64,000 nucleotides of DNA from Bugula neritina (lineage: Eukaryota; Animalia; Bryozoa). Position 1 is the first letter of the stretch. Each line of letters begins with the position of its first letter. Under the pieces are notes generated by a model. That model was given only the letters and a program-made list of their open reading frames with translations. It did not search any database and had not been told where the DNA came from. A program made the translations under genes and the position numbers. The DNA is taken from contig OZ037767.1 in the NCBI GenBank assembly GCA_964035545.1, forward strand, positions 8,256,581-8,320,580, read 5' to 3'. Shown piece after piece: positions 9,550-62,905 of this stretch.

Positions 9550-9550
9550 C

Positions 9551-16411: not shown

Positions 16412-16496
16412 TCCATCTGCATCCAAGCTTGAACGTCGAGTATGAGTATAAATACCGAGTTCCCAGGTAAGCTTGCTTAGATCTAACACTCCACTA

Positions 16497-19145: not shown

Positions 19146-19483
19146 TGTTATGATTTTCAGATTTAGGGTTGATATGCAATCCAGAGAGTCTATTTATTTG
19201 CTAGAGAACTTCACCAGGATAAGTCGAGTGAATACGAGTATATTTACACACAAGAATACATCACAAAAACTATACAAATGCATTCAGCAAACTGTACATC
19301 TATACCATTCAGCACTCTATCTTCGACTAACTAGCAGCGGGAAAACTAACTACTGCTACTAACTATCAGTGTCGCTAATTGGCTGTCCATTTTTCCGGGT
19401 CAATTACGTGACCCCATGCTGTAGTAGTGGGGGAAAATAACATTTCCCCATATTATGTACTGGTAGCTTCACGAGCCACCACA
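19146..19483 (-). repeat. Element C 3' LTR
   Basis: Direct repeat of 26473-26811. Confidence 0.93.
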
Positions 19484-19575
19484 CCGCCCCCACCAGCAGA
19501 AAGCCCTCTTTCTGATACACAAAAAAAACTTTACAATTAACTACGTACATTAGTAGACCAAAAAGAAAAAGACAT

Positions 19576-19679
<104 letters not shown>

Positions 19680-19867
19680 TGCACAATAACAGACATAGTC
19701 ATTATAACAGCATGTCACATACATTTGGCTAGCTATAGAGAGAGAATACCGGCTAGTTGTAGTATTGGACAAGAGGTCGAACTGTCGAGCTGTCAAGCAT
19801 TTACATGATAGTCTTGGGCCTCCAAGAGGGTGAGGCTTGCGGATCATTCCGGGCAGAAGAACCAGGG

Positions 19868-20942: not shown

Positions 20943-20966
20943 ACTGAGTTTGTGAAATGGTTTGAA

Positions 20967-26439: not shown

Positions 26440-26472
26440 CTTGGATGTGCACTATCCCACTGCTGCCACCAC

Positions 26473-26811
26473 TGTTATGATTTTCAGATTTAGGGTTGAT
26501 ATGCTATCCAGAGAGTCTATTTATTTGCTAGAGAACTTCACCAGGATAAGTCGAGTGAATACGAGTATATTTACACACAAGAATACATCACAAAAATTAT
26601 ACAAATACATTCAGCAAACTGTACATCTATATCATTCAGCACTCTATCTTTGACTAACTAGCAGCGGGAAAACTAACTACTGCTACTAACTATCAGTGTC
26701 GCTAAATGGCTGTCCATTGTTCCGGGTCAATTACGTGACCCCATGCTGTAGTAGTGGGGGAAAATAACATTTCCCCATATTACGTTGCTAGTAGCTCCAC
26801 GAGCCACCACA
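26473..26811 (-). repeat. Element C 5' LTR
   Basis: Direct repeat of 19146-19483, adjacent to the PBS. Confidence 0.93.
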
Positions 26812-28528: not shown

Positions 28529-28936
28529 TGTGGTAGATTTTAGTGGTGCAAGTATTATTGTATTAATCGAAAAGGTTCACTTCATATTGTTTATTATCTT
28601 GTGAGTTCGACACTGTCGGAGTGCAGCTATGGACAGCAGTGGCACCACTAGTAACCACCAATCAAGACAGTCACACTAATTGATAGCAGGTGGAGCTAGC
28701 TACTCGTAGTTGCAGTGCGCTGAGTAGCTAGCTGGCAGAGCAGCTTGGGACTTCATTTAGAACAGTTGTGTATTAAAGCTCACTAATTATGTAATCGTTT
28801 TCTATTCATGCTAGCAGTAAATAACCTTCTTGTATTTGTGTAAATAATAAAGTATCTTATCGTAAACAACCTGTCGCAGTGGCTTTGTTTAAGTAGACCC
28901 ACACATAATAATAGTGAACTGGCAAAATTCACTACA
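28529..28936 (+). repeat. Element D 5' LTR
   Basis: Direct repeat of 35691-36098. Confidence 0.95.
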
Positions 28937-28991
28937 CTGGTGGCAGCGGTGGGATTCCACTTAATACAAATGCCCCTAGCCAGGGAGTAAA

Positions 28992-29869
28992 ATGGCCGAC
29001 GAAGTCGTTGACGCGCCCAGACAGGAGCCAGCAGCAATAGAGGAGGATCACATAGGCGGCCCAGCGCTGCCTATGGACAGGTACCACTTGCGGGCTCCCA
29101 TCTTCTCTGGAGAAGAAGATGTGGAGCAATTCATCACTGAGTTCAGTGATGTGGCGGACATCTGCGGATGGCCGAACAGGGTTACTCTGATCCAGCTGCG
29201 GTTGTGTCTGACAGGGCCGGCTAAACCCTATGGGATAAGCCAGAATGTCGGTGACATATTTGAAACAATACGAGCTAGGTTTGGATTAACCGCTCGAGAT
29301 GCTCGCGTGCAACTGCAGAGTCTTAGGAGAAATCCTAAGACCAATCTGCGAGAGCACGCTACCGTAGTCGAACGACTGGCACAAGTTGCTTACAGCGACT
29401 TGCCTGCCGATGGTCGACAGAGCCTAGCACTGGATGCATTCCTCCAGTCTATTAACAACCTCGGTCTTAAACAGCATCTGCTGGTGGCCGAAGTTGAGAC
29501 TATGGAGAGAGCTCTAAGGCTTGGGAATGCCTATTTCCAAGCCGACAGTGCAAGTCGACCTGGTGCGACAGTACAGCAAGTCGGGGCAGATGACGTGTCG
29601 ACGTGTCGACGTCGCCAACGAAGACAGCTGTACAGGTCGCAGCGGCAGCAGCAGACGAATCTAGCTTAACCACGAGCTTGATTCGAGAACTGCTCGCCGA
29701 GATCAGGCAATTGCGCCAGCAGGCGACAGCCGAGAGACCCAAGAGGTCGTCGGTAGCTGTCGACGACAGGCGCGGCCCCGTATGCTGGGGCTGTGGTAGT
29801 GGTGGGCACTTCCTACGAAGTTGCCCCCGCGGCAGTGGGAGGCGGTTAAACAGCGACGGCCCACGGTAA
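28992..29869 (+). pseudogene. gag: Element D gag (frameshift from an 8-bp duplication GTGTCGAC at ~29595)
   Basis: ORFs 28992-29669 and 29603-29869; CCHC knuckle. Confidence 0.92.
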
Positions 29870-32800
29870 CTTCCGCCTACCGTGGGCCCCAGTTTAACCC
29901 CCCAAGGCAAAGGCTACGGCCCCCACCCCATCGGGTGAGGAGGCCGCCTTCGCCAGAGTGGCAAGCCCCAAGGAGAGTGAGTCGGCCGCAAGGCCCACCA
30001 ATACCTCCGGCTTGGGCACTCAAAAACCGCTTTGAAGGTTTGCTTGATGAGGGAGTGAACGACGAATGGGAGCACAACAGGGATTTTCCTCGGTTGCCCA
30101 CACGAGCATCAGTCCGAGAATTCACTCGGCCGCCCGTGTGTGAGCGAGACCGAGACGTACCCTGCCCGCCCATGCAACGTCGACGACCCCCTCGCAACCG
30201 AAAAGCACAGGTGCATCCCCAATTCCATGCACATGAGGTGTCGCCTCAAGAGACAAACCGCTCAGTGAGCGCCCAGCCATATGGAAGCAGCTATTTCCTC
30301 CCCGGCAAAATTGCTGGTAAAGCTGCCACATTCTTGTTGGATACTGGGTGTACCACAAATCTACTGAGTCGACGTCTCTTCGACACTCTCAGTGCCAAGG
30401 ACAGGGCTAGCCTAGAACCATATGAGGGGGAACACGGCACGTTGGCGGACGGGTCGTGTATTCCTTTCTATGGGGTAATCCAGTTGACTGGTAGAGTCCG
30501 TGATCAGATGATCAGTGAGACCTTCATCGTCAGTCAACTCAAGGAGGATGCCGTCTTGGGCATGCCATTTCTGAAACGACACAGGTGCTACATAGACTTT
30601 AGCAAGTCGGCAGTAGTGATGGCGGGGTGTGAGCTGGCCTGTGTCGACCGATTTGGCAGACCCTTGGTGGGGGGAGTGCAGGTGGTACAGCGCTGTACTG
30701 TACCTGGGCGCTCCCGGGCTACAGTTCGCTGCAGAGTGAACTGTAGGGACATCTCCGAGCTCGGAGTGGTGGAAGGTGCACTGGGGGGCGTCCAGCTCGC
30801 TAACAGTCTGAATAGACTGGATGAGCGGGGGGAGTTCCTGGTCCAGTGCACAAACCCTTTCACGGAGCCGGTAGAATTACCGGCTGGGTCTCTAGTAGAG
30901 AAGTTCCACTCCGTGCAAGAGGAGGATGTAGGGCCCGCGCTGGAAACAGCGGACGGTGCCCGGGGGGTACCCACTAGAGACGGCAGGGGGCCGGTGCCTG
31001 AACACGTAGCAGAGTTGTACGAGGAAGCCTGTGATGGCTGTGAGAGCAAGCGAGAACGCCTGGAGATGGCGCGGCTACTCTCTGAGTACAAGGACGTGTT
31101 CAGTTGCGGCGACCATGACATGGGTCTGACTGAGACTGTCCGTCATGAGATACCCCTGGCGGCGGGGACGGTGCCGATTCGGCAGTCGACCCGCCGGTTA
31201 GGTCCTGAGAAGGAGAGAGAAGTGAGCCATCAGGTGCAAGACCTTCTGAACCGGGACCTGATTGAGCCAGGCCATGGGGCCTGGAGTTCTCCAGTCGTCC
31301 TGGTTCGGAAAAAGGATTGTAGCTGGAGGTTTTGCGTTGACTATCGCAGGCTGAACAGCGTGACCATCCAGGACGCTTACCCTCTCCCGAGGATCGATGA
31401 GTCGCTCGATGCCTTAGCTGGTAGCAAGTTCTTCAGCACGTTGGACTTGCTAAGCGGGTATTGGCAGGTGCCCCTGAGTCCTGAAGCACAGGACAAGGCC
31501 GCGTTCATAACGCGGGATGGGCTCTGGAAATGGAAGGTGTTGCCATTCGGACTTACGCCCGCACCAGCCACCTTCCAGCGACTCATGGAGCAGGTCCTGA
31601 GTGGACTGCACTGGAAGACCTTGCTCATATATCTCGATGATGTCATCGTAATCTCCCCCGACTTCGACACACATGTCAGTCGACTCAGGGAGGTGTTCGA
31701 CAGACTCCGAGCTGCTAACCTGAAGCTAAAGCCCTCGAAGTGTGCATTACTGCCACGCGAGGTCAAGTACCTGGGCCATGTAGTTGGTCGAGACGGGGTC
31801 GCCACCGACCCCGAGAAGGTACGGGCCGTGAGGGACTGGGCCGTTCTTGTCGACCTCTCTGAATTGCGGGCATTCCTGGGGCTGGTAGGGTACTATCGTC
31901 AGTACATACCAGACTTCGCAGGAATTGCACAGCCGTTAAATCGGCTGACCGCGAAGGGGGTGCGATGGCAGTGGACGCAGGCTGAGCAGAAGGCATTTGA
32001 CCCCCTGAAGGATCGCCTGGTGGAAGCACCCATCTTGGCGTATCCTGACCCTGCGAAGGAGTACATTTTGGATACTGATGCCAGTAACCATAATGTGGGG
32101 GCTGTGCTATCGCAGGTCCAAGATGGTCGCGAGGTGGTGGTGGCTTACTATAGCAAGGCCCTGTCGGCGCCTGAGAAGAACTACTGTACAACCAGGAGGG
32201 AACTCTTGGCAGTAGTCAAGGCGGTCAAACACTTTAGACCATATCTATATGGGCGCACATTCCGGCTTCGGACGGATCATGCGTCCCTGATATGGCTGTG
32301 TCGACGGGCAGAACCATCCAGCCAAGTGGCACGCTGGCTAGAGATCCTGGCAGAGTTTTCTTATCGGATCGAGCATCGACCCGGTAAAAAACACGGTAAT
32401 GCAGATGGACTCAGCCGCCGCCAGGCAGATGGGTGTAAGCAATGCCAGAATATCGAGCGCAGGGACGGTGGACCCCCTCGCTCGGACGTCGAAGGGCAGT
32501 TGGGGAAAGCGGGTGTGTACAGCTGGGAAGAAGGGCAACTCCTGTCCGAATCACCCAACAAAGCTGTTAACAACCTTCACCCAAACCCCACGTTGCTTCG
32601 GAACGTCAGGGAGCTATGTCGGCTCCAGTCCACGCTACCAGGAGTGGTAGCTGACCTAGTCCGGGCCAAGAAGGAGGGACGGCGGCCGAGTGAGGCCGAA
32701 CAGCGAGTGAAGAGTACTGAGTTTAAGTACTTCTGTGACCGCTGGGACTCCCTCAGGTTCAACTGCGATGGGCTGCTAACGATCACGTTGGCAGTCGGCA

Positions 32801-34395
32801 CCAATCGCAGTGAACGAGAGAGGGTAGTCTGCCCGTCAGCTCTGAGGCGGGAGTTGATCTGGGACACCCATAAGCAAGCTCACGCAGGAGCTAGCCGGGT
32901 GATCAGGTGTCTTCAACTCCAGTGGTTTTGGCCCGGTATGACCCGGGATGTCCGACTCCGGGTGCGGAAGTGCGAGGTGTGCCAAGCTAGCAAGCATGGC
33001 CGCCCCACTGAGACCGCAGGGAGGCATCGCCTCCATGCCGGTCGTCCGTGGCAGGTGGTCGCTGTCGATCTGGTAGGCCCCATGCCCACTACAGCGAGAG
33101 GTAATAACTGGATACTGGTATTAACTGACCATTTCACGCGGTGGGCTGATGCACTGGCTATTCCAGATGTGTCCGCCCCCTCGGTGGCCAGAGCTTTGGA
33201 TCAGCAGGTGTTCTGCTATTTCGGCTTGCCGGAGCAGATACACTCTGACCAAGGCGCCCAGTTTCAGTCGCAACTTATGAGCGATCTCTGTAGAGTGTGG
33301 GGGGTAAACCAGAGTTGAACGACCCCGTATCACCCGCAAGGGAACGGGGTCGTAGAGCGGAACAACCGAATGCTAGGGGACTCTCTGAGAAGCCTGCTTA
33401 TCGGTAGGAGCCAGGAAGAGTGGGACTTGGTGTTGCCGCAGATCATGCGAGCGTACCGTGGTACCCCTCACTCCAGTACACTGGAGACCCCTAATTTTCT
33501 CATGCTGGGGAGAGAAACAAGGGTTCCTGAGCACGTAACCTATCATGCTCCGAATCCCGAGAGCAATGTCCACGACTACGTGGACAAGCTCGTAAAACGC
33601 ATGGGGACGGCTCACGAGGTGCTACGTGAGCAGCAGCGGCAGGTCAGAAGTGGTGACTCTGACGACCCACCTTTATACAAGGTGGGGGACTGGGTCTGGA
33701 TGACCAGTCATCGCCGCAAGCGCGGACAGGCAGCCAAGTTGCAGCCAAAGTTCGTAGGTCCCTACTGCGTAATTGAGGTAATGCCAAACCATACATACAA
33801 AGTGGAACGGTCTGGACAAGTGTCGGTCCAGAACGAGGCACGGCTCAAACCTCACTGGGCAAGTCCTGATGCGGCAGGTCAAGCACCTCCTCTCTTAGAG
33901 CCAGCTAGGCGCCCCCCTATGAGGGGGCGACCCATGGCATATCGAGAGATTGAGGAGATACTGCCAGACCAGGACGGGGCGGCTGATGCGTCGGCCGACC
34001 AGCCCCAACCTCCTCCACCCCAGGAAGAGGAGGTCGACACACCTGAAGACCTGTCAGAGCCGGCCCCACCACCTGTAGAGCCGGTCGACAGGCCCATCGT
34101 CCCGGATGAGATGGCAATTCCTCAAAATCATGAGGAAGAGGCAGCTGGGGGAGGACCACCCGTACTGGTGGACCCCCCCGTACTGGCGACACCACCCGTG
34201 GTGGAAGAGTCACCAGTCGTAGCAAATTCCCCAGTGCAGTTGGAGCGTAGGCAACGCACTAGGGCGCCTCCATCTTATTTAAAAGATTTCTTGTGTGATG
34301 CAGTGGAAAAACATCCATCAGCTAACATAAAAGAAATCTGGGGGGACGAGCAATTGAGAGTTGCATTTCCAAGATATAAGGAGACGCAATTGTGA
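29821..34395 (+). pseudogene. pol: Element D pol (single premature stop at 33316)
   Basis: 1165-aa and 341-aa ORFs in the same frame; all PR, RT, RH and IN motifs present. Confidence 0.96.
29845..29888 (+). promoter_or_regulatory. Putative -1 ribosomal frameshift signal (G_TTA_AAC, 6-nt spacer, 11-bp hairpin)
   Basis: GGCCCACGGTA/TACCGTGGGCC perfect stem; pol is in the -1 frame; equivalent signals in A and C. Confidence 0.8.
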
Positions 34396-35690
34396 GTTGC
34401 CTACCCCAGTGGTGTGACACAAAACACCACCGGGGGTAAGAAATGAGCGAAGTCAGCTCGCTAGTGAAAGGGGTATTATACAATCACTTTCACTGCGGAA
34501 AGCGTTCTTTTCTGATTCAACTGCCAACGTGCACGCATGTACTTGGCAGGCTGGCGCACTACGTAGTCTAAGTGGGCAGCAGACTAAAGTCAGGGCTGTC
34601 TTATGGTAAGTCTACTAGTATAATTCTATTATTTAAGTAGAATTCAAGCTGGTAGCCTAAATCAGTCTCGCTTTATCATAACGATAAAGTTGATTTCCCA
34701 AGTCAGGTGATTCACTGACGACTTGAGTGGGGCGGTCAACCACATGATTAATTATTAATCAGTGGTTAGTGATTGCGAGACTCAGTCGAGGTGTCGTACT
34801 GACAGGTGCAAACCCCTTCAACAGTTGTTGGCATTCTGTTGCAGGTGAGACTGGAATGGCGGGGCCAAATTCCTTCTCATGGCATAGCGCAGTCACATCA
34901 TTCATCTCAACTTTTGGCTAGATGCTGGCTGCTTGACTGGACTCTTGTAGCGACATGACAGCAGTGCTGATGGCTGTCATAACAGAAGTGCCAGAGACAA
35001 CTGGCACGTAGCTCCTTCCTCCCCTCCTCTGGCGATCACGTTCCGGTATAGGCAGAGTAGTTCTTCCCTCTTCTCTCCTGTGGCTACATCCTAATAAGAA
35101 GAAGAAGTAATATTAAAGAGTTCTGCATGAAGTTAAAAAGTAAAAATAGAAGTTAAGAAGAAGAAGTAATATTAAAGATTCCTGCATGAAGTTAAAAATA
35201 GAAGTTAAGAAGAAGAAGTCTTCACTTTCCTCCTTTTGGGAATTCGACGGCGACAAGGTAGACGTTGGTAGTGAAGAGACCAGTCAACCCCCCTCCATCT
35301 CCCCCCCTTTGGGGAGATTTCTTCGTACTCTCCAACCCCCCTTTCCTTCTCTCCCCCCTTTGGGAGAGACTCCTTTGCCACGCTTGATTCTTCTGGGGAC
35401 TTCTCGACCCCCATCGCTTGGCTTCGACTAGACGAGTGTGAAGCAGTACATCCCCTTCTCACTAAGTTCATGCTACCCTATATCATTTGGTGAGAGACCC
35501 CCCCACCTACCCTGTGACTGACCCGGATCGATCGTGTACAACATGGACATCGTTTTGAATACATATTTTGTGTTTCTCTCATTCCTGGTTGTTTTGATCT
35601 TTTTGTTTTATTTTACCTTTATTCCTTTTATTATTTTTTTGAAATTATGTGCATCAATCGTAGAGTGTACTTTTCGATAGGTGTGGCGAG

Positions 35691-36098
35691 TGTGGTAGAT
35701 TTTAGTGGTGCAAGTATTATTGTATTAATCGAAAAGGTTCACTTCATATTGTTTATTATCTTGTGAGTTCGACACTGTCGGAGTGTAGCTATGGACAGCA
35801 GTGGCACCACTAGTAACCACCAATCAAGACAGTCACACTAATTGATAGCAGGTGGAGCTAGCTACTCGTAGTTGCAGTGCGCTGAGTAGCTAGCCGGCAG
35901 AGCAGCTTGGGACTTCATTTAGAACAGTTGTGTATTAAAGCTCACTAATTATGTAATCGTTTTCTATTCATGCTAGCAGTAAATAACCTTCTTGTATTTG
36001 TGTAAATAATAAAGTATCTTATCGTAAACAACCTGTCGCAGTGGCTTTGTTTAAGTAGACTCACACATAATAATAGTGAACTGGCAAAATTCACTACA
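35691..36098 (+). repeat. Element D 3' LTR
   Basis: Direct repeat of 28529-28936. Confidence 0.95.
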
Positions 36099-37063: not shown

Positions 37064-37075
37064 TATGTGTACAAT

Positions 37076-37831
37076 CACAGGATAGTTAAGGGCAACCTTT
37101 TAGCTGCAACTGCCTTGCTGAGGTTTGCATTGTAATCATATAAGAATTCAGTACCAGTAAAATAAAATCTCACCTAATTGTGCTAGAGTCAAAATTCAAA
37201 AACTATGTTGTAGATCTTCTTTTTCCCCAGTGTAAGTTTTTTGGAAATTTCAATTTTCATTTTTTTTGCAAAGTTATAGACAAAAAACTGCCCAATTTTG
37301 GCCAATTTTGCCAGAAAAGCTGACTTTTCAGTACCAGTAAAATATCTCAGCAGCAAAACATGATATCTGAATAAAAATTGCATTGCTGGAATCCTAAGAT
37401 ATTTCTCCAGTGCAACTTTTTTTCTTTTTCCAATAACTCTGCTAGATTGCTCACAAATTGGTGATTTATACACTGAAAATGTCATATTTTTTCATAAGAA
37501 ACTAGCAGCGCGCAGTGCTTCACGCTTCGATGAGCACGTAGGGATGAGAAGATATTGGCGCGTACATAATAATTACAGGCTTGCTAGCTGGCAGGCTATA
37601 ATGAATAGCTTGCTTGATGCTGTGTTTATGTAGCACCAATAATGGAATGTTGATAGATGACGCAGCCCTAATGAAGGTTGCTGCTTATTGGTTGTAGTTT
37701 AATCTTAGGCTAAACAATTGCAAGTAGGCAACACGCATGCCACCCGCAGAGCAATATTATTCAAGAACCTGAACTACATTTTGAGAAAAAATTATGATAT
37801 TCTTGCTGAGGATGCCCTTAACTATCCTGTG
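37076..37831. mobile_element. CACTA/EnSpm-like non-autonomous element (756 bp)
   Basis: Same TIR and body as 14065-14820; TSD AT. Confidence 0.9.
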
Positions 37832-38813: not shown

Positions 38814-39888
38814 TCAGTCTTGATCACCTCGCTTGAGTAAAGCCACAGAGGCTTTGAGAGTTTTGAGTTCCGAGGCGGCGGCAGCTACCCTAGGAGTTAG
38901 TCGTTGAACCTCGGCCTCCAGGTCATATATGCATAGCTCAACTTCTTTTAAGTTACGAGCGGTGGGAGCATGCCGTTTTGGAGAGGACGAATGCCAGCGG
39001 CGTTTAGTAGAAGGTAGTGCAGGAACGAGAGAGGGGGAGCGTCGTTTTCTAGGTACTTCGACTCTCTGAAGAAGGACTCTTGGTAGGGTAGTGGGTCAAG
39101 GTACAGTTTGTGCTGGAGGAGAGTGGGGTGGCTTTGCAGATTTCCTGTATCTGGGGGGTTTCGGGCACGGTCCATGGGTGATGAGGCGAGGGGATGGGAA
39201 CCCCTGTTTCAATCGCTCAAAACGGGGGAGATCTTTGATGAAGGGTTTTATTAAATTGAGGAAGGTGGGAAAGTTATACTGATCCACGTCATACAGGTGT
39301 CCCACGTGGCATTCCATGGTGCGTTGGTGTCTGAGGATGCAGTCCCTGTGGTAACTGAATTCACCACAAGGACAGAGGGTGGTTAGGAAATGTTGTGGTA
39401 CATGGACGCGCAAACGGTGATGTGTAGAGAAGTGCTGTTGACACAGCCTGCAGGTGGTGCAATCGTCATGGCCGCGGTGTATCTGGATCTGTTCTTTGGT
39501 TTCTTGTGCAACCCAACTATGTCGTTGGAGTAGTACATCTGGCAGGAAGGTGGGAGGTGTTTCGTCGTTCCAAGCTAGCTCTAGTGGTGGCATGTCTTCG
39601 TAGTTGGGAGAGCGAGTGGCGTCTAAAAGAGCAGAATTATTGTTAGATCGAAATTGATCTTTACAGCATAATTCTGATGACAATCGACTGTTACTAGTCT
39701 GAGAGTCATACATCTTTTTATACGGCACTCGAGAGACTGTGTCAGAACGTGTAAACTGACTGAGAGACATAGTATCAAGCTCCAAATCTAGTAGATCGTC
39801 CGCCATTACTATGTCCTCGTCGTCATTCACGTGTGACTCTGTCTCCAGTAACTGTGTAAGAGTTGACTGAGGTGAGATCTATTTCCAT
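38814..39888 (-). pseudogene. Element E ORF3 zinc-finger/coiled-coil protein (disrupted)
   Basis: ORF 39096-39830 closely matches B ORF3; tail ELCIYDLEAEVQRLTPRVAAAASELKTLKASVALLK. Confidence 0.8.
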
Positions 39889-45842: not shown

Positions 45843-47604
45843 CACAGGATAGTTAAGGGCAACTTTGTAGCTGCAGTATACCAGTAAAATAAAATCTCAC
45901 CCAATCGTGGTAGAGTCAAAACTTAAAACTATGTTGTGGATCTTTTTTCTCCAGTGCAAATCTGTTGGAATTCTTAATTTTCTTGTTAAGTTATAAACAA
46001 AAAAAACACCCATTTTCGGCCAATTTTGCCTGAAAAGCTGACTTTTCAATACCAGTAAAATATCTCAGCAGGAAAACATAATATCTGAATAAAAAATGGG
46101 CTGTTGGAATTCTGACAAATGTGCAAGTTTTTTTGTTTTTCCAATAACTCTTCTAGATTGTATGTAAATTAGTGGTTTATACGCTGAAAATGCCATCTTT
46201 TTTCCCCAAGTAACTAGCAGCGTGCATCACTTCACATTTCAGTGAGCGCGTTATGTACGTAAGAATGATAAAATATTGGCAGTAGGGGTAACGAGGGCTG
46301 CATAATGGTCATGGGGGTAGAAAAAAGCCGGTCAAATTGTGAGAGAACTTATTGACTTAGAGTTGTGATTTTTTTATAATAAGAAGCTGATGACATAGTT
46401 ATTCAGCCATTGTAGTATCAACACTTTGCGGAGCATATATGTTTAAGAGCAGAGTCAAAAACTGTGTTTACCTACTTTTTTGTCTTTTAAGATGTCATTA
46501 AAGCTTCTGTTGTAAATTTATGCTACTCACTGATTATGTGGGTATTTAAAACTTAGGAGTAAATAGAAGATACTGTGTTATATAGGTTAGGGATACCTAT
46601 CAAAGATTTTAAACCTGTAAACCATGACATAAATTGTGACATCAGCACATAAGTTAAAAACACTATAGCATCTAAAAAAAATTTAAGACTGCATTTAGAA
46701 GTAATTCACCATGTTATGTTAAGGAATATTCAAATTGAATTCCTGGTACAGAATCTAGTTCAGGTATCAACATCTGCAAAAGCGGGGCATGGAGTAAATG
46801 AAGTAGGCGTTGTGTCTGAACGAAACGAATAAGACTACAATTGTTGTCCACTACTCAAGCCTAATAATGTGTCACTAATGCAACTTTTCATTTTTTATTT
46901 TTTATAAAATAAATATTTTAGGTCAGTGGTGCTAATCTGCATCTTACGTAGCTAAATATGTAAAGGCAACTATAAGATCACAATTGGTAATTTTGTAGCT
47001 AGTATTCCAAGGAAGACATAGGCTACTGGCTTTCAAAGCTTATTATCAACATTGTCAACATTGCATTTAATAGTTGAACTATGCAGAGAGCTATAATAGT
47101 AGACAGTAACTAGTAATAAGCTCGTTAGCGTCTTCTTACCTCTACGAGTTCAATGAAGGGTGAAGTGATTTGCGATGCTAATTACTTAGGAAAAAATATA
47201 GCATTTTTAGACTGTAAATCACCAATTTATAAAAAGTCTAAAAGGGTTATTGGAAAAATAAAAAAATTGTATTGGAAAAATATCTCAGGATTCCAACAGT
47301 GCAATTTTTATTCAGATATCATGTTTTGTTGCTGAGAAAATTTACTGGTACTGAAAAGTAAGTTTTTCAGGCAAAATTGGCCAAAAATGTGCAATTTTTT
47401 TGTCTAACTTTGCAAAAAAAATGAAAATTGAAAATTCTAAAAAGTTTGCACTGGGAAAAAAGAAGATCTACAACATAGTTTTTAAATTTTGACTTTAACA
47501 CAATTAGTGAGGTTTCATTTTACTGATACTAAGACCTTATATAATTACAATGCAAACCTCAGTGAGGCAGTTGCAGCTAAAAGGTTGCCCTTAACTATCT
47601 TGTG
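45843..47604. mobile_element. CACTA-like element with two inverted copies of the left arm (1762 bp)
   Basis: CACAG..GTG termini, TA on both sides, ~450-bp inverted arms. Confidence 0.8.
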
Positions 47605-48717: not shown

Positions 48718-49126
48718 CTATATGACACAATTAGCACATGATGCCGGGCAAACCTGGAGCAGTACAAGGGTGAGCAGGGCACATTGGTAGAAGAGTCATG
48801 TATTCTTTTCAAGAGCATCATTGAGCTGGCTGATAGAGTCCGAGATCAAGTGGCTTATAAGACATTTATCGTCAGCTAGCTCAAGGAGGTCCCCATTTTA
48901 GAGATGATTTTCTTAACGCCGCACAAGTGCCATATTGACTTTAGCAAGCCGGCTGTGGTTATGGCCAGGCGGGAGCTTGTTTGTGTCAACAAGTTTGGCA
49001 TACCAGTAGTGGGGGTGCTCAGGTAATGCGGCGCTGCACGATTACTAGATGCTTTTGAGCTACAATTCACTGCTGAGTAAATTATAAGAACATTTTTGAG
49101 TTAGGAGTTGTGGAGAGAGCTTACAA

Positions 49127-49881
49127 CACAGGATAGTTAAGGACAAATTTTTAGCTGCAACTGCCTTGCTGAAGTTTGCATTGTAATCATATAAGAATTC
49201 AGTACTAGTATATTAAAATCTCACCTAATTATGCTAGAGTCAAGATTTAAAAACTATGTTATAGATCTTCTTTTTCCTCAGTGCAACTTTTTTGGAAATT
49301 TCAATTTTCTTTTTTTTTGCAAAGTTATAGACAGAAAACTGCACAATTTTGGCCAATTTTGCCTGAAAAGCTGACTTTTCAGTACCAGTAAAATATCTCG
49401 GCAGCAAAACATAATATCTGAATAAAAATTGCACTGTTGGAATCCTGAGATATTTCTCCAGTGCAATTTTTTTCTTTTTCCAATAGCTCTTTTAGATTGT
49501 TCATAAATTGGTGTTTTATACACTGAAAATGGTATATTTTTTCATAGTTAATTAGCAGCGCGAAGCACTTCACGCTTCAATGAGCACAAAGGGATGCGAA
49601 TATATTGGCGCGTACATACTAATTACAGGCTTGCTAGCTGGCAGGCTATAATGAATAGCTTGCTTTGTACTTTGTTTTTGTAGCACCCATAATGGAATGT
49701 TGATAGATAATGCAGCCCTAATGAAGGTTGCTTCTTATTGGTTGTAGTTTGATCTTAGGCTAAACAATTGCAAGTAGGCAACACGCATGCCACCCACAGA
49801 GCAATATTATTCAAGAACCTAAACTACATTTTGAGAGAAATTTATGATATTCTTAGTGAGGATGCCATTAACTATCCTGTG
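49127..49881. mobile_element. CACTA/EnSpm-like non-autonomous element (755 bp)
   Basis: Same family as 14065-14820; TSD AA. Confidence 0.9.
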
Positions 49882-51868
49882 AAGAAGATCCAACTTGCAA
49901 ACAGTTTCAATTAGCTGGTCCTGCAAATTAAACATCTTGGTGCAAAGCTTTCTCCAATACCAAAAATAATTACTGTACTACCAGGAAAGAACTCCTGGCA
50001 GTAATCAAAGGAGTCAAACACTTTTGGCCCTATCTGTATGGGAAGATGTTTTGGCTATGGACGGATCATGATTTATTGATATGGCTGTGTAAGAGAGCTA
50101 AGCCCTCTAGTCAGGTTGCACGATGGCTCAAAGTCTTGGCCGAGTGCTCCTACCAAATAGAAGAGGCATGTGAATGCAAACGGGCTAAGCTGGCGTCCTG
50201 AAGAATGGTGCAAACAGTGGCAGAATATTGAGTAGAAAGATGGGGCCCCTACGCTCCAGCATTGAGGCACAGTTTTTGATCGCCGGGCAGTTACGACTGG
50301 CTTTCCTATGGGTATCGTAAACGCTCTCTGAGCTAACACAGTCGTGGCTAAAATGTCCGCAAATTACACAAATCCCAAGAGACACTACCTGGTGTGGTGG
50401 CCGACATATACAAAGCGGAGAAATATGGGAGGCTACCGAGCGAGGAAGAGCAGTGGCAGAAGTGCACTAAATTTCAGCTATTTTTTCTCTACTGGGACTC
50501 ACTCTGAGTTGATATGGTGCACTCACAGGTAGGCTCATGCAAGAGTGTAAGGAGTAGTCAAAAAGTTACAACTTCAGTGGTACTGGCCAGGTATGGGGCG
50601 TGATGGGTGGCTCAAGGTGAGACAATGCAAAATCTGCCAGGACAGCAAACATAGCCGCCCCTGGAAGCAATGGGACAGAAATGGCTGTACACTGGGAGGC
50701 CTTTGCAGCTGGTACCTGTCGACTTAGTAGGCCCATGTCTTAGTTTCTCAGAGGGAACAACGGAATACTGGTGCTCAAGGATTATTAAGTATGCTGACGC
50801 CTTGGCTATCCCAAACACATCGGCTCCTACAGTGGCCCAGGCCCTGAACCAGCAAATGTTCTGTTACTTCGGCTTGACGGAGCAGATACAGACGGTGCCC
50901 AATTCCAGTATCAGCTTTTGAGTGACCTCTGTCGACTCTGGGAGATGACAGAGCAGTACCACCCCGTATCACCCACAAGGCAATAGAGTTGTTAAATGTG
51001 ACAACTGCGTACTGGGTGAAGCTTTCCAGAGTCTGCTCTTCGGCCAAAGTCAGAAAAAAAGAAATGCACTGCTGCGGCAGAATATGTGCGCATACCTCAG
51101 GACGCCTCACTTCAGCACTTCTAAAGCTCTCAACTTTCTGATGCTAGATCGAAAGACCTGAGTACCAGACCACTTGACCTATTATGTTCTGACCCCAGAA
51201 AGCTCAGTCTACAAGTGTGCGGGAGAGCTGATAGAGTGCATAAGAGTCGCACATGAAATCTTCAATAGAAGCAATAGCAGGTGCATAGCGAAGACTCCAA
51301 GGAGCCTCTACTCTGCCAGGTGAGGGCCTGTGTCTGAATTACCAGTCACCGTAAGTGCCGCAGACAGTTGGCTAAGTGACAGCCCAAGTTTGAGGGCCCC
51401 TACTGTGTGACTGAAGCGCCACCCAATCATACGTACAAGATAGAATGTGATAAAAAGGTCTCAATCAAAATTGAGGCTTGCTTGAAATTGCATTAAGCTA
51501 GTCAAGATACAGTGGGTTAAGCACCCAATTTACTAGAGTCTAGGAGGTAGCCAGCAGATATCGGCAAGTAAGGCAGGGCTCCAAGTACAAAATAGTTGCA
51601 CCGAAGCCGTATTGCAGAGTCAGAGAACCCGGACCTCCTCCACCGGCTGCAGAGAAACTGGTTCCCACTGACCAGATTTTCACACGACCATCACCTGAGC
51701 CATTACTCTCAGCAAACACGCTGACCAGCCTAGCTTTTTACATGCAACATTTCTCAGAACATGACGCTCGCAGTCAGTTGATAATTTACTTGCTTCCAAT
51801 TTTTCAAGCATGGCGTCAAGTGCTACTATTGAGGGTAGGTGACCTATAGAACAAGTATTCCTTCTAAT

Positions 51869-53294
51869 ATGGAAACTGATTTAGTTTTGGTACAGTCTGA
51901 CTTGATCAATCAGATTGAGTTGGATTTAGCCTAGGGCCACACGGCGCGTATTTTCGCATGCGAAAATTGAAATCACAAGTAGCAAAGGTGTCCACTGTAG
52001 CATCAGTGATGCATGATAAATAAAGCGTCCATTTTTAAATCGCACTCGCTTTCAATAAAACGCAATTTACTGGAATGTAGCACTAAAATAAAAAAATTGG
52101 GCTCGCTGAATAACTACCAGCCAATTATGTGACGACGACAGAAACGATTCGCACTTGCGTTGAAAATGCAGAGCGACAAGTGCGAACGTTTTCTCAACGC
52201 GCACAGTGGACACCTTTGCTACTTGTGATTTCAATTTTCGCATGCGAAAATACGCACCGTGTGGCCCTAGGCTTACTGGGCACTACGACAGTCGTTGATG
52301 ACAATGAGGATTTTGATATGACGGACGATCTTCTAGATTGAGATCTTGAGTCAATAACTTTCAGTCGGCCTGGGCAGCTGCCAATATTCCCTTCAGTACC
52401 ATACAAAGGGGTAGGTGATTTTCAGACAGACAAAGGTCTGGAATCACAAAAATTAAATGCTAAAGATCCTAGTATGAGATTTATTTCTAATTCTACTCTT
52501 GTAGATGTTACTTGGCTTACCACGACATGTGCTCCTCTCTCTCCAGAGATTGAATAGAATGATTATCTAAGCTCTCAGGTCCCACCTCCGATCTTCAAAG
52601 ATGACAGCTCCGACTGTCCACTAAGACTAGTGTCAATCAAACCACTCCTCCAGTTTGACTGAATTTAATCAGCTACTCACATTCAAATTAGTGATATGCT
52701 AAGTGAATCTGACAATGGGGTATGTGACCTGTGTCGGCAGGAGTTTACAACAAATAAAAAGCTAGCTCAAGGTCTAGGTCCCACAGCACTTCATAACAGC
52801 TTTCAGCCCCTGTAGAGAATTTAGCTATAACAAAGACTGTTCTATGGCACCAAAGAACCATGAAGTGCAACATTGGGCACTTTTTTCAGGTGGATGCCCC
52901 CTCCCTTCCCAAATTCTTCAACATCATCCACCATGTGATGCAAGATAGAAGCTAACTTGCTCGACTCCTCATAGGCTTCCCTCTCTTCGCCTGACATTGG
53001 CTGCACAAGTCTGAAGACCGGACACCCGTCTCTACAAGCTGTCATCAGTCGTGTGGATGCCGACAGTGACGTGGTTCGTTTCACATCTAACCAGTCTTTT
53101 CCAAGATCAAGTAACAAAAAGATGCTATTAGGTCTCTTCCTTTCCAGCCCCTGGAGCAGCATGTCTGGAAGCTGGAACATTCACTAAATCAAATCACACC
53201 ACAGCTACTAGCAGCCACTAGTGAGCTCTTCGGTCTTGAAGATGCCCTGATGCGGCAAAAAAGGAAAGGCCAGCAGTTCAAGTAAATCCAGTGA
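51869..53294 (+). pseudogene. Element F ORF3 remnant
   Basis: METDLVLVQSDLINQIE..DDNEDFDMTDDLLD; CDLCRQEF..VPQHF..PC..HQRTMKCNIGH at ~52720-52890. Confidence 0.75.
51929..52272. mobile_element. PIF/Harbinger-like MITE
   Basis: ~70-bp TIR starting GCCTAGGGCCACACGG, 3-bp TSD TTA; removal restores the ORF3 frame. Confidence 0.88.
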
Positions 53295-53380
53295 TAACAA
53301 TGTTTTATTTTTCTCAGTCAAAGTAGTTAGCCTCTTTACTTCATTTTCTGTGTGATAAAAGTGTTGTTTAGAATCCCTAT

Positions 53381-53670
53381 GCTCCTGTAGCATAACTGGT
53401 TAGCGTGCCTGCTTGCAAGCCGGAGGTCTGTGGTTCAAATCCCTGTGGGGGCAATTATTTTACAAGCGATTTTGGCGTTGTCTTGTCGAAGTACTCTCAA
53501 GGAGTTGAGTGGTGAGTGAAGCCTATAATTCACAGAGTCCTTGGGGGCCAGTGCAGTTCTGGAGAGAACCAGGTGGGATGCTGCTTAGAATTTTGATGCC
53601 TGTGTAGCATAATTAATTAGCATGCCTGCTTGCAAGCAGGAGGTTTGTGGTTCGAATCCCAGTGGGGCAA
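53381..53670 (+). repeat. Two tRNA-derived (SINE-head-like) units, 53381-53452 and 53598-53670
   Basis: A box TAGCATAACTGG and B box GGTTC(A/G)AATCCC; imperfect cloverleaf. Confidence 0.7.
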
Positions 53671-56333: not shown

Positions 56334-56659
56334 TGCTGCCTTAACTGCCTACAAGAAAAAAGCATCAAGAATTATTGTTAAAACTCGATTAAGCAGCTAT
56401 CGCTTTAACAATCATTTACTGTGAGGATCAGCTATTTACCTGCTTGAAGAATGCTATAATACGTAATATTTTTGAAAATAGTTTTAGCAGTGTAGAAAAA
56501 AAGTGAAACTCAACTTCTTAGTCGCAATTTTCAAGTTTAAATTTTTGGCGTTGTGCTAGCCTAAACTCATGACACAACGCTAGCAATGTTTTAATTGTCT
56601 TGAATCCCTCATACTTTCAAAACCAACCTCTGCTTGATCTAGGAATTTTCTGTTGATAG

Positions 56660-57134
56660 TGTTATATCTGGATTTACAAGTATTATAAATATGTGTAGTT
56701 GTCATCTCTTGTTGTTGCATGTGTGTGGGGTGCACAACTCTAAGTTTGACATTAATATTACTTATAGCGTGGGTGTGGCTTGTGTGAGTGTTATAGCTAT
56801 ATAACCTAGTGCAAATGGGAGAATGGGGGGACTTGAGACTGGTTGAAGAACGATTGAGAATATTTATATAGAATGTATGCAACATAATTAGAATGCGTTA
56901 GAGTAAGTTTGTGAGTGCTAGCTCAGGACCATAGACCGAGGAGCACCACCAGCCAACTACTCTAACCCGGAGTCTCAACTTCACCCCTACCAGACGGACA
57001 GGAGCTGGAGTTACCTCGCAGCCAAGCTATTAACCCGCAACTGCACACTGACCCCGAGCTCACCCCAAGGCCATATCATATATATTATTCGGTGAGTTTA
57101 CAATACTCAAAAATCAGTAAAACCCACCATAACA
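56660..57134 (+). repeat. Element G 5' LTR
   Basis: Direct repeat of 61727-62201. Confidence 0.96.
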
Positions 57135-57462
57135 TTTGGTGGAGGTGCCATTCGCTCTCGTGCACCGCTCCAGTTTCTCAGTCTATCTGTGTGTTTTATT
57201 AGTTGAGACTGCCATAGAAGTCCCGTACAGTTAGTTTTTTTTCCAATTTGTTTTTTTTCATGTGGCTTGTTTTTATCTTACTGTTGATTTGTGCACAAAT
57301 TGACACGGGGACGTGTCTGCTTTAAATATGGGGTGGAAGTATTATGTTATATATTGTGCAAACAAAAACAATTAATTAGTAAATTACCCAGAGGCTTATA
57401 ATATATAAACAAATTTAATACCTAATTATATAAATAGCCTATATATAACTTTGTGTCACACA

Positions 57463-58779
57463 ATGGCCACATGTAGTGACTGGTGCCACTTATTTAGATG
57501 CCCCAAAAGTTGGGCTTTTGTTCATCAATTTGGTGACATATCTGACAATTGGTATCGAACCAAAGCTGATTTTAGCTATCGAGCAAAAGCTCTTAACCTC
57601 ACAGATGAGCAAAGTGTTAAATTCTTAGGCCTTTGTCTCTACGGTAATGCGAAGAAGAGCTACAATAATTTGTTGCGAGCCACCAATTTCCAAATCTCAT
57701 TTGACACCCTGATTAATGTTCTTGACAAAAAGTTTAATAAGAACCACTCTACAAAGATGAAAAAATTCTTAGACCTCCATATTAGGGCCCATGAGTCTAC
57801 AGAAGACTTTTTATGTAGAGTTATCGATGAGGGCAATAATCTATATATGCTAGATAGTGGCTCAAAACTTACTATTATAGGTGAGACTTTTGCTACTGGT
57901 GTAGGTAACCGCGAGCTAAGTTACATTTTGCTGCCACAACTGGCTGGTAGGTTTAAAAATCCACCAACCATAGAGGAGTTGTTCACACTCTGCTATAAGC
58001 ACAGTGTGGACAGTCCGAGTAGGAAACCTACCAAATGCCATATCTGCGCCAGTATTATTACTAAAGTAGGTTCAGAGTGCAGACCGGCAGATGAAGAATC
58101 AAACACCCAGACCCCCGAGTCTAGATTCGCCACCCCACAACCTGCCGGAAGCACCCAGCACTGCAACCCAGCATCGGAAATACCTGCAACCTCAGACGGT
58201 ACCACTGAGGCAGAAGGTATGAACCCCAGCTGTCCATCGGCATCGCCATGTTCAGCTACTGGAGAGCAAGTCCGACCTACTAGCAAAGTCTCACCAGAAG
58301 AGAAGATAGCTGCAAGCCTTCATCAGGATGTAATGACTGCCACACCCAGCCTTCACTCAAGCCCAAAAGCCTCTGATAAGGTATTTAATGTGTGCAGTCA
58401 CCCTGTGACAGCAGCCATATATCTTCTTATATACATGCTTTTCTCTACTCTACAACACCTGGTGTACACCATCACAAGCATTTATTTTGGCGTCACTTTT
58501 ATCTTCAAACTGGGTAAAGACATCTACTCAAGTGGCAGGGTTAAATGTCAAACCCAGGGGCATAACGGTGTGCTAATACTCGGAAATTATAAAATAATTT
58601 TTCCTAAGTTGAGTAAGCCAAAATTTGGCCCACACACCAAATACATTTATAGGTTAGCCAACAAGCTTTTGAGATACTTCTCAAAAGCTATTGTCAGACT
58701 TGACCCTCTCCCCCCTGGCAGTCTGCACAATAACAATATTCTAGCCAAATATAAGCCCTCAGTACCTAGTATGATCTAG
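57463..58779 (+). CDS. gag: Gag-like protein with a capsid-like N-half, degenerate knuckle, S/P/T-rich linker and hydrophobic TM-like segment
   Basis: Intact 438-aa ORF; LCLYGNAKKSY..FDTLINVLDKKF..ESTEDFLCRV matches the retrotransposon capsid pattern. Confidence 0.75.
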   Translation: MATCSDWCHLFRCPKSWAFVHQFGDISDNWYRTKADFSYRAKALNLTDEQSVKFLGLCLYGNAKKSYNNLLRATNFQISFDTLINVLDKKFNKNHSTKMKKFLDLHIRAHESTEDFLCRVIDEGNNLYMLDSGSKLTIIGETFATGVGNRELSYILLPQLAGRFKNPPTIEELFTLCYKHSVDSPSRKPTKCHICASIITKVGSECRPADEESNTQTPESRFATPQPAGSTQHCNPASEIPATSDGTTEAEGMNPSCPSASPCSATGEQVRPTSKVSPEEKIAASLHQDVMTATPSLHSSPKASDKVFNVCSHPVTAAIYLLIYMLFSTLQHLVYTITSIYFGVTFIFKLGKDIYSSGRVKCQTQGHNGVLILGNYKIIFPKLSKPKFGPHTKYIYRLANKLLRYFSKAIVRLDPLPPGSLHNNNILAKYKPSVPSMI

Positions 58780-61726
58780 ATAATTATTTATATGATTCAA
58801 TTATTAGCCCATTATGTAGCCAGCCTAAGAGTCCTATAGATCTCCATATTAGTTCTCATAGTCCCAGCCCATCCGGCTGTTGGACATGTACAGGCCACTA
58901 ATGCCCAACCCGATATACTATTTACTCCGTAGTCCCAGCCTATCAAGCTGTTGGACGCTTACAGACCATCATTCAATGTATGTGCACATATACTAACAAT
59001 TTTAGGAAATTACAGGGCTCGTCCAGAATGACGTTAAGCTTCAATCGAAAAACTAGGGCTACACAGTATACTGTCATAATACATAGGCTACTTCAACAAA
59101 TAGGCTACATACGATATTTATATAAAGCGCTTTTAAACACAAACTGTCCCGAACAACAAACGAATCAAAAAACAATTGTATAATTTATATCGCCATGATG
59201 ACACGTCAGTAGGGCAACACGTACGTAGAATCACTACAGAAAATGGGACACCGACACAGATCGAATATATAAAATTTCATAATGGTATACCGACAGCATG
59301 CATAAATTCGTACGGAAATACAACAAATTTACAGGCCTTGCAAAAAACAAAAATTACTACTGGACGTCCATAGAGCTCTATACTTTGACATTGACTAGAC
59401 TAAATTTCATAGACGTATGAAATAGACTGAGTGCACATTACTCTGGTGCATTTTGCTATCCTGCATGCTAGCTAATTAATACTAACCACTTTCTATATGT
59501 TGGTGATGGGTATATGTATATAATTTTATGTTGTGAATTTTCTATTAATGAAGCGCTGCTGCTGCTGCCTGGTCACGACACACATTTAAGCACAACTTGT
59601 GCTGGCGCCTCATGTATGACAGTATATGACTTCATTTAGTATGATGCGACAGTAATCCAGTATGAGCGTACTTATTTGAAAACGTAAATAAAAATAGCTA
59701 TAAAAATATTATACTGTAGTTATGTGTACCAAACTCACATAAGAGTTACCAGGGATCAATGTTGTTTGCAATTACTTCTTCAAAAGGAAAATAAAATATA
59801 AGCTCTATTATTAGTAGGATACATGTGGAGACAAGTACGGTGGGGGCTGGCATTGCTACATGTGACTGCAGCGCATGGGGCGTGTTAGCTGCTACCCGTA
59901 CAGCCTCATTCACTCCCATGTATTGTCTCGATTATGGCCCCAGTTAGCTCTAATTAAACTCCTCTATACCTAAGTGCAATACTATTTAGTCAAATTACTA
60001 ATCGAATTAATATATAATACGTCTTATCGCCATATAAGATTTTCTCTTGAAGTAATCATCTATTAAGCTCATTACCAACCATGCGGGCCTATATACCTTG
60101 ACAAACTCAAGCTGGTAGTTAGTCATCGTCTGTGACTACTGCACCATACCATTATTACTCTCTAACTGATGTGTATTATCAATGAACTGGAAAAGTTCAA
60201 TACGTATGACAACCATAGTCTTGTGAATCTACAGGTTCATAGTGTTTATTAATTGATATCATCTTGCTGCTGGAGCAGTAATCAGAGGTTAATTTTCATT
60301 CTCTAGGAAAATGTTGACATAGTTGAGTTCTGAAGGTTGGAAGCAATTAGTGATAATCTAAGGGGAAGTAGTTTTGTTAATTAACCTGATAGCTGGCTCT
60401 AAGTGAATCAAACTAGACAGTTTAGGAAATAGTAGACCAAACATAAACTTTAATGAGCTGTAAGCCTTACCCAGCAAGACAGCTTGAAATTATTGCTTGA
60501 GATATTATATTACACAACTCTGTATGATGAAGGTGTTTCCATTCTCTTTTGGGTCCTGGATTTTACTTTGTAGACATTTCTATTATTGTGATAAAGATAC
60601 TCGGGCCTATTGCCTATATCAATTGTCATTCTCCCCATATTTATATACATCTTAGTTTGCAGCAGGCTCATGCAGCCATCATATTATATTAATTATGTTA
60701 GCCTTATCCTTATAAAGAAATATACTAGCCCCAGTAAATACACTTATCTACGTAGACCTCTAATCCTTAATCACATATTACATTGGTATAGACTGGTACC
60801 ACCATACTCCAATCTCCGTTCTAGCCTTTTCCTACGTCATATAATGTGCTTGATATGCCTTTAATTGCAAGTAGTGTAGAATAAAAGCTGATACATATAG
60901 GTACCCAAACAGCTTTACGTACTGCCTCCCTTACAAGAATAGTTGATTAAAGAATAGGTCATTAATCAAAATGGTTGGTCTGGCAACTTCTGTCAGATCA
61001 AAAGGTTATTATATTTAATGTGGAAGTAAGCTTATAATTAAATTGCATATATGTCTCATAATATCTCATTAATCTAGAATAATAGTAATTGATACTTTCC
61101 TTGAAGATAGGGCTACACAGCCACAACTCATTTACAAATACCCTGCATAATTTTTAATTTTAAGATTTAATTTATAATGCTTAGTTAACTATAAAATTCA
61201 GATTTAAGTCGTGCTAACTCATTTAGTTTAAAAAATAGAAATTGATGCAATCACTGCAAAAAAAAAAAAAAATAAATAAACGCTGACTGATGAAGCTACT
61301 TTCTACCTAGGTCTTGGCTTGTTCAAGTTTTATCGTTAAGATCTTGCATGCTACATGCACTAACATATTATGGTTATATTTACTGAATAAACGTTTTTAA
61401 TTTTTTCAAGTGTAGGTATAGTACAGACTAATATTTAATATACTAATTTCTTCCAATAGAACATAAAGTGATCCACAAAGTGATTAAAAAAAAAAAAAAT
61501 ATATATATAATATACATACATACATATACATACATACATATATGGCATACATGCATCTATAGCATTTTATCTGATAGGCTCTATTTTATAAAAAGTAACA
61601 AAAGGAAATTTGCAACTTTCAATAGACAGGAGTTGAACTTGTTCTTGCCGTGCTCTTCTCTTGTATGTTCTCTTGTTATGTTAAGTATTTACAGGTGGAA
61701 CTGTAAATTTTTATTGTGACGGAGAA

Positions 61727-62201
61727 TGTTATATCTGGATTTACAAGTATTATAAATATGTGTAGTTGTCATCTCTTGTTGTTGCATGTGTGTGGGGTGC
61801 ACAACTCTAAGTTTGACATTAATATTACTTATAGCGTGGGTGTGGCTTGTGTGAGTGTTATAGCTATATAACCTAGTGCAAATGGAAGAATGGGGGGACT
61901 TGAGACTGGTTGAAGAACGATTGAGAATATTTATATAGAATGTATGCAACATAATTAGAATGCGTTAGAGTAAGTTTGTGAGTGCTAGCTCAGGACCATA
62001 GACCGAGGAGCACCACCAGCCAACTACTCTAACCCGGAGTCTCAACTTCACCCCTACCAGACGGACAGGAGCTGGAGTTACCTCGCAGCCAAGCTATTAA
62101 CCCGCAACTGCACACTGACCCCGAGCTCACCCCAAGGCCATATCATATATATTATTCGGTGAGTTTACAATACTCAAAAATCAGTAAAACCCACCATAAC
62201 A
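61727..62201 (+). repeat. Element G 3' LTR
   Basis: Direct repeat of 56660-57134. Confidence 0.96.
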
Positions 62202-62905
62202 ATAGGCCTAGTGGAGTGACTGTAGATAACTCCAAAAATAAAAACAAGGAAAACTGTTATTCGTTTTGTTTAGCCAAAATGAAAATAAAGACAAGTTTGT
62301 TTAGTTGCAATATTATTCATAATATTTTTTAAAGATAGAAAATTTTAATAAATGATTTTTTTTTGTCACTCCAACGTTTCTATTTGTTTAAGATTAATTG
62401 CCGGATCACCTGTTTTGAAGTTTTTGTTTTTACGAAGAGTTTTGCTAAAAGTTTGTTAGTTTTGTGACTTTTTATTTCTGAGATATAGTTTCTTGTGTGT
62501 GTTTAAATGAAAATATATTATAATAATTACTTTACTCTAATAATTAAAAGCTCGACAAGTGAATTGCACCAGATAAATAAGTATTAAAAGTTGAAACATA
62601 ATTAAAGATAAGTGACTTTTCAATAGGATAGAATCTTCCGCTCTTATGACAACAAACATTTACTTATAAATAACCATACTATTATTTGTTTTCTCTTTGT
62701 ACAAATACTTTATTATGTTACCTACAATACTTTTCCTGTTTATCATATGAGAGTTATAAAATAGTGAGTGAATCGAATACAAGGAAGAATAAACTAGCAT
62801 GAACGCAACTACTTAGTTAAACAGCACCACTTTGTAACAACGTGGGGCTCACACATCAGGGTCCTTATATACCTGTGAAGCTGTTGTAAGGTGCTAATGA
62901 TCAGG

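Follow-up and report, generated by a model that had tools for sequence, protein, structure and literature searches.

A freshly inserted gag-only LTR element of Bugula neritina with a candidate membrane-associated Gag tail

Introduction

LTR elements that carry gag without pol have been described in plants and in animals. TR-GAGs are non-autonomous LTR elements of plants, and are described with one gag ORF, no enzymes and a length below 4 kb (Chaparro et al. 2015, PMC4350172; PMC13570524). In zebrafish, Bik-1 and Bik-2 (BHIKHARI) are gag-only and recently mobile, with a Gag that is membrane-associated via an N-terminal coiled coil (PMC12067270). Gagr of Drosophila is a domesticated Gypsy-derived Gag, described with a transmembrane segment toward its C-terminus (PMC8956099, PMC7231272). 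The sORF2/FAST-like proteins belong to MDG1-group elements with gag and pol; they are described as a separate ORF of 63-107 aa, with an ectodomain of about 30 residues and often myristoylated (PMC11952523). Why pol-less elements keep a selected gag is an open issue for TR-GAG-like and Bik-like families. Here we describe a gag-only LTR element of Bugula neritina and compare it with these systems.

Results

A freshly inserted LTR element with a single ORF

The window, i.e., the whole 64-kb stretch of B. neritina DNA that was analyzed, contains an LTR element of 5,542 bp at 56660-62201. Its features are as follows.

56656..56659, +, target-site duplication, left copy, ATAG (4 bp)
56660..57134, +, 5′ LTR, 475 bp, with the ends TGTTAT..ATAACA
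57137..57149, +, primer binding site (PBS)-like TGGTGGAGGTGCC, 2 nt 3′ of the 5′ LTR
57463..58779, +, single Gag-derived ORF, 438 aa, N-terminus MAT
57472..57501, +, N-terminal C-x4-H-x3-C motif, residues 4-13, invariant in nine of nine aligned proteins
57517..58020, +, predicted two-lobed Ty3/gypsy-type capsid domain, residues 19-186
58036..58080, +, CxxC (residues 192-195, invariant in nine of nine) and a third Cys, 206, not conserved in distant relatives
58087..58377, +, S/P/T-rich linker, residues 209-305, low pLDDT
58381..58506, +, uncharged, moderately hydrophobic stretch of 42 residues (307-348), predicted helical, candidate membrane segment
58507..58776, +, basic tail, residues 349-438, with three predicted short strands and then an amphipathic helix at 390-411 (58630-58695)
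58780..61726, +, non-coding internal region, 2,947 bp, common to other copies
61718..61726, +, polypurine tract (PPT)-like run GACGGAGAA, 9 nt, 8/9 purines, weak
61727..62201, +, 3′ LTR, 475 bp
62202..62205, +, target-site duplication, right copy, ATAG

The two LTRs were identical at 474 of 475 bases, with the single mismatch at 56819. ATAG flanked the element on both sides as a 4 bp duplication, the fifth base being mismatched between the flanks. The element is a freshly inserted copy of an LTR retrotransposon. The near-identical LTRs, the perfect target-site duplication and the single intact 438-aa ORF given in the preliminary description were all confirmed. The PBS was clear and is presumably tRNA-Ala-like, and the PPT was short. 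Directly after the gag stop, a 39-nt duplication (82%, 71-nt spacing) was seen at 58859-58968 and might act as a structural or packaging signal. The element also contains a TA/CA microsatellite (61500-61556), which gave a chance mir-297 match far below the family cut-off.

A multi-copy family without pol

The region 3′ of the ORF was described as about 2.9 kb without a long ORF, and this was borne out: among its 33 stop-to-stop frames of at least 35 codons, the longest had 93. Pfam detected no pol or env family in the 21 of these frames that were scanned. When nine window ORFs (four Pol, three Gag, and two other) were compared with the element by tblastn, the best E value was 0.12. A profile search for a Gag-Pol fusion among proteins of 805-2,295 aa scored none of 4,802 candidates, which is weak evidence.

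Copies of the element were seen as contigs of public sequencing runs. Parts of the stretch were contained in 17 runs from five studies, and four of them (X1-X4) were compared along the element. X1, X3, and X4 each covered 30/30 bins of the stretch. In X1, which may itself be the source of the window sequence, the summed depth, which is not a copy number, was about 58 in the flank, 890-1,805 in the ORF, 507-2,755 in the 3′ region, and 4,000-6,700 in the LTRs. Because the ORF and the 3′ region were both deep in X1, many copies share the non-coding 3′ part. With regard to a polymorphism of the insertion, X1 contigs matched both flanks exactly but ended 30 and 28 letters inside the LTRs, short of the 31 letters required. 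With regard to expression, the RNA run X2 covered 19/30 bins at low depth and had one 345-nt contig identical to 58134-58478, but DNA can occur in such runs. Diverged copies (80-85% identity) matched the hydrophobic segment and the tail and then continued with unlike, unread sequence, so a pol-bearing subfamily may exist among them.

The presence of many copies along the whole element indicates a gag-only family rather than a single decayed copy, and we regard such a mobile family as very probable. The element has TG..CA LTRs, a target duplication, a PBS and a PPT, no functional pol, and has multiplied as such, like a non-autonomous LTR retrotransposon. Its Ty3/gypsy placement is suggested by the predicted capsid fold, there being no pol for an RT phylogeny or a PR-RT-RH-IN order. 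The reading as a young gag-only LTR element is thus backed by the LTRs, the absence of pol, and the many copies. Intact pol in other copies, which would have spoken against that reading, did not appear: no Gag-Pol fusion was found in the weak profile search, and the 3′ ends of diverged copies are unread.

Search for a helper in the window and beyond

No second copy of the element was found in the 64-kb window, the rest of which is a nest of Gypsy elements. An autonomous partner with shared LTR ends and PBS, as envisaged in the preliminary description, did not emerge from the searched sets. There was none in the window or among longer proteins. A scan of JGI metagenomes by protein gave 128 pattern matches, none of them confirmed, and the scan by the LTR-PBS pattern gave no match. 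Viral contigs yielded seven matches and no confirmation. Window Gypsy elements with a readable primer site had a different site and different LTR ends, save for one shared 7-nt end.

The Gypsy nest comprises elements at 2334-9959, 19146-26811, 28529-36098, and 10145-45623, with LTR pairs 94-99% identical. Their common primer site, TGGTGGCAGC.GTGGGAT, is unlike that of the studied element and is presumably tRNA-Leu-like. Window Gypsy elements also carry an extra third ORF, 3′ of pol and in its orientation, at 2997-3962 (-), 16452-17456 (+), and 39096-39878 (-); the three ORFs are related, have paired Cys/His zinc-finger-like motifs, and do not resemble env. A repeat of about 760 bp (14060-14820, 37072-37831, and 49122-49885, with parts at 45879-46280 and 47131-47604) is 91-94% identical among copies, has inverted ends, CACAGGATAGT..ACTATCCTGTG, and has one copy inside a pol gene; it is probably a non-autonomous DNA transposon. 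Two 89-nt tRNA-like copies, 53362-53450 and 53579-53667, are 81% identical, and the first scored 30.4 bits with the Rfam tRNA model. ARAGORN called no tRNA at either, and they may be tRNA pseudogenes or the head of a SINE. An inverted repeat at 51928-52273, with 71-nt arms that are 99% complementary and 204 nt apart, is MITE-like.

The N-terminal half is predicted to be a capsid

Sequence searches gave little. Pfam found no family above cut-off in the ORF, and weak, sub-threshold PNMA and DUF7083 rows in the relatives. A PDB sequence search with the profile returned four unrelated rows with E of about 0.5, and the profile matched a window Gag with a probability of 0.2%. An Atlas feature search returned Gag, Ty3 capsid, and PNMA clusters at 0.88-0.90, to be taken as a lead only. 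The AlphaFold model, built from nine sequences, was helical; block pLDDT was 63-84 for residues 31-180, and most of the remainder stayed below 50. With this model, the Foldseek list was headed by the capsids of PNMA2 and Arc (probability 1.00; E from 1.1e-3 to 8e-3, thus never 0.001 or less). VIA gave Z 11.9 to PNMA2 (rmsd 5.0, 160 aligned) and 10.5 to MOAP1 (3.7, 91), and its rows 1-32 were all capsids. By prediction, the N-terminal half is therefore a Ty3/gypsy-type capsid, and the capsid-like N-half of the preliminary description is supported by the model and by the Foldseek and VIA matches.

A zinc knuckle lacking His had also been proposed. The sequence CHIC-x10-C is present at residues 192-206, and reads C-x2-C-x10-C without His, versus the canonical C-x2-C-x4-H-x4-C. 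Its identity as a knuckle is doubtful, however, as the third Cys varies and the model makes residues 193-204 a helix. In the nine-row alignment, C4, H9, C13, C177, C192, and C195 were invariant, and C206 was not. A degenerate knuckle therefore seems improbable, since only the CxxC is kept, together with the N-terminal Cys/His motif. Judged from conservation, the CxxC and the N-terminal Cys/His motif may share one metal. The capsid side has neither a CCHC knuckle nor a basic nucleocapsid, and RNA packaging by this Gag therefore has no direct support.

The C-terminal third is coding sequence under selection

Differences among copies were collected at 58340-58800. Forty of the 90 rows were scored, each singly, including double changes within a codon. 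Among the 40 differences shown, 21 were synonymous, versus 28-31% expected (p 0.001-0.003), and none gave a stop. The excess was found in the basic tail, with 15 of the 24 differences shown synonymous and about 30% expected (p 0.0006-0.002), whereas the hydrophobic segment was near neutral (5 of 15 shown, p 0.4-0.5); the tail and the segment did not differ significantly in synonymous share (p 0.11). Over the whole ORF, seven of ten difference rows were synonymous, and none of the 12 indel rows shown (of 149) fell in the ORF. In the C-terminal region, the two listed indels both lay beyond residue 415. One 80%-identical diverged copy had an unlisted gap and another swapped 163 letters for 164, so the frame may not be kept in all diverged copies. 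This substitution pattern shows purifying selection on the basic tail, and the tail noted in the preliminary description (16 K/R versus 2 D/E in residues 349-438) is therefore a selected part of the protein.

These counts bear on the view that the element arose by deletion from an ordinary Gypsy element, and that its hydrophobic tail is read by chance from T-rich DNA or from what was once pol. T makes up 37% of the DNA of the segment, a composition that often yields hydrophobic runs; in the diverged copies, too, the sequence beyond the ORF is unlike that of the element. However, the synonymous excess lies downstream of the segment and in the gag frame, therefore the C-terminal third is not read-through. 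Moreover, four other proteins share the same C-terminus, although the last few residues differ in most copies. No trace of pol was seen, the lack of a hit among the 4,802 longer candidates adding weakly to this, and the 3′ region is common to most X1 copies. We consider read-through hardly tenable, and the unconserved extension into a pol frame that the preliminary description had named as fatal to its proposal was not what we found.

A hydrophobic segment and a basic amphipathic tail

The preliminary description saw a hydrophobic, membrane-spanning-like stretch. The uncharged stretch stands: in each of four close copies, the 42 positions stay uncharged through 6-7 substitutions, a lack of charged changes that is not significant given 14% expected per change. 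The run itself is rare (15/3,000 protein shuffles and 0/40 stop-free non-coding stretches). As a span it is less secure, with borderline hydropathy and near-neutral residues. The peak 19-residue hydropathy was 1.57 in the window copy, a value reached by 958/3,000 protein shuffles and 12/40 non-coding stretches, and 1.96 in P0002, P0005, and P0006. The hydrophobic moment was low, 0.13-0.38 up to residue 345. The comparison of copies suggested in that description likewise came out divided: the tail is selected and the uncharged stretch is kept, but the hydrophobic residues carry no selection signal. In the tail, the amphipathic helix had a moment of 0.75, reached by 1/5,000 shuffles, in a window of residues picked after inspection.

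The C-terminal part was also modeled alone from five near-identical sequences. The model had a helix at 314-357, three short strands, and a helix at 390-411, with a mean pLDDT of 53. The helix at 314-357 was unbroken, with no hairpin, at pLDDT 62-69. This part alone gave no usable Atlas match, no Pfam family, and no fold match with E at or below 0.001. Its best Z was 4.5, to long helices, which at pLDDT 53 is silent on a new fold or a host-gene capture.

From these properties, we consider it rather likely that the protein is membrane-associated via a hydrophobic and basic C-terminal module; that it truly spans the bilayer is possible, but less likely than not. Alternatively, the module may be soluble, the long helix packing on itself or on the tail, and the basic tail serving as an RNA-binding part that replaces the nucleocapsid. 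The borderline hydropathy of the window copy would suit this, as would the finding that selection acts on the basic tail and not on the hydrophobic residues, the missing CCHC knuckle, and a tail predicted as strands plus a helix. A run of 42 uncharged residues is rare in shuffles, however; the low moment is unlike that of a coiled coil, and other copies are more hydrophobic than the window copy. A soluble module thus seems doubtful to us.

P(T/S)AP motifs bind ESCRT-I. PSAP was found in the linker of P0002, P0005, P0006, and the diverged P0010, and 557/20,000 linker shuffles have it as well. This raises the idea of Env-free export, in which capsids bud or pass between cells, ESCRT is recruited through PSAP, and the C-terminal module of Gag acts like a fused sORF2/FAST protein. 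The order of hydrophobic segment, basic patch, and amphipathic motif is that described for sORF2 (PMC11952523). In the element itself, the order of basic patch and amphipathic helix was present, and there was no separate short ORF and no myristoylation motif, the N-terminus being MAT. Against export stand the absence of a short ectodomain and of an N-terminal Gly, and a 300-residue N-terminal part before the segment. In addition, the young window copy has no intact PSAP, none of the five distant lineages has the motif, and the C-terminal part has no sequence or fold match. We hold export to be unlikely.

Relatives of the Gag

Close relatives formed one 90% cluster of five proteins, three of which are 435 aa. 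Ten distant matches were found among 1.84 billion representatives, and five of them were full-length, with 31-37% identity over the N-half. Three of the five full-length lineages had a hydrophobic segment after the linker (hydropathy 1.69-2.06, shuffle p 0.03-0.21), and two had none. The C-halves of the distant relatives aligned with that of the element no better than chance (47-465/500 shuffles reached the score). Given the two lineages without it and the unalignable C-halves, the segment is no family-wide requirement. A common origin of the distant segments was unsupported, since the tree needs two changes and 151/500 shuffles were as low.

P0011-P0014, whose C-halves are otherwise unalignable, all end in DEGY[CF]S[ED], which we take to resemble a beta-TrCP phosphodegron, and together with P0015 they form a single branch of the capsid tree (97/95). 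P0007, P0008, and P0010 are fragments with 59-74% identity, and each lies on a contig of 27,065 bp; they probably represent a single older copy, now broken, in which the beginning of the hydrophobic segment was already present.

Discussion

Our favored account, to which we give a probability of about 0.5, is that the element is a helper-dependent retrotransposon whose Gag docks on membrane by a hydrophobic and a basic amphipathic helix. An autonomous Gypsy element would reverse-transcribe and integrate its RNA in trans, and the element's Gag would co-assemble with the helper's Gag-Pol. The two helices might then hold the shells on an intracellular or the plasma membrane, by which the element RNA would gain a share of the helper enzymes. 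Under the positive-inside rule, a hairpin or a surface-embedded helix, which would leave the capsid and the basic tail both cytosolic, fits better than a single span.

A Gag kept for host benefit or for helper blocking was considered as well. Here, a tethered capsid would trap related Gag-Pol particles, or the Gag would have a Bik-1-like developmental role. The Gag of Bik-1 is membrane-associated and needed for zebrafish development (PMC12067270), and a membrane span has been described for Gagr, which is domesticated (PMC8956099). However, blocking its own helper would run counter to the continued spread of the element, and the selection seen across subfamilies is in keeping with a function in its own replication. 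We regard host benefit or helper blocking as very unlikely.

A bolder picture, which we think improbable, is an env-less and pol-less family whose Gag would be a membrane protein with a FAST/sORF2-like module, and with a late-domain motif in most copies. It would take helper-built particles to the cell surface and to neighboring cells, e.g., the germ line. Membrane tails would then have been acquired repeatedly within a small, undescribed clade of capsids that has a Cys/His site of its own.

We found no report of the combination of a gag-only mobile element with a membrane-type Gag tail: the literature searched, with Repbase outside its scope, gave no mobile gag-only element with a membrane-spanning Gag, and the family may already be catalogued. 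The Gag described here has no usual zinc knuckle and appears to have gained a selected, membrane-type C-terminal module while still mobile. If the membrane binding is real, the element would offer a one-gene system for how retrotransposon parasites reach helper enzymes or exit the cell without Env.

The element resembles TR-GAGs in its single gag ORF, the absence of enzymes, and signs of recent activity. It differs in its length (5,542 bp versus below 4 kb), in 2.9 kb of non-coding DNA, and in a Gag with a hydrophobic-basic module, and in none of the searches were the relatives found here plant TR-GAGs. With the Bik elements, it shares an animal host, many copies, recent mobility, gag only, a presumed need for a partner in trans, and a Gag that is membrane-associated in Bik and probably so here. 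The Bik elements, on the other hand, are an endogenous retrovirus analyzed alongside foamy viruses, whereas the capsid of the element is nearest to PNMA/Arc/Ty3 and its candidate membrane part is C-terminal and hydrophobic. The sORF2 proteins share the series of hydrophobic segment, basic patch, and amphipathic motif in an env-less LTR element. In contrast to them, the studied module, fused behind 306 residues, lacks an N-terminal Gly and is less hydrophobic. The two-lobed Ty3/gypsy capsid fold predicted for residues 19-186 is that of PNMA2, MOAP1, and Arc (PDB 8rb3, 7lgc, 7r24). They are host genes at 11-15% identity, and the studied Gag adds the Cys/His motif, the CxxC, and the C-terminal module.

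To the statement of the preliminary description that Gags are not normally integral membrane proteins, Gagr is a published exception among domesticated genes. Like the Gag studied here, Gagr is Gypsy-derived, and the transmembrane segment described for it lies toward the C-terminus, as does the candidate segment of the element. It is a host gene, while the Gag studied here belongs to a young mobile family and lies between intact LTRs. If membrane binding is true, it would mean that Gags can become membrane-anchored in elements that are still active, ahead of domestication.
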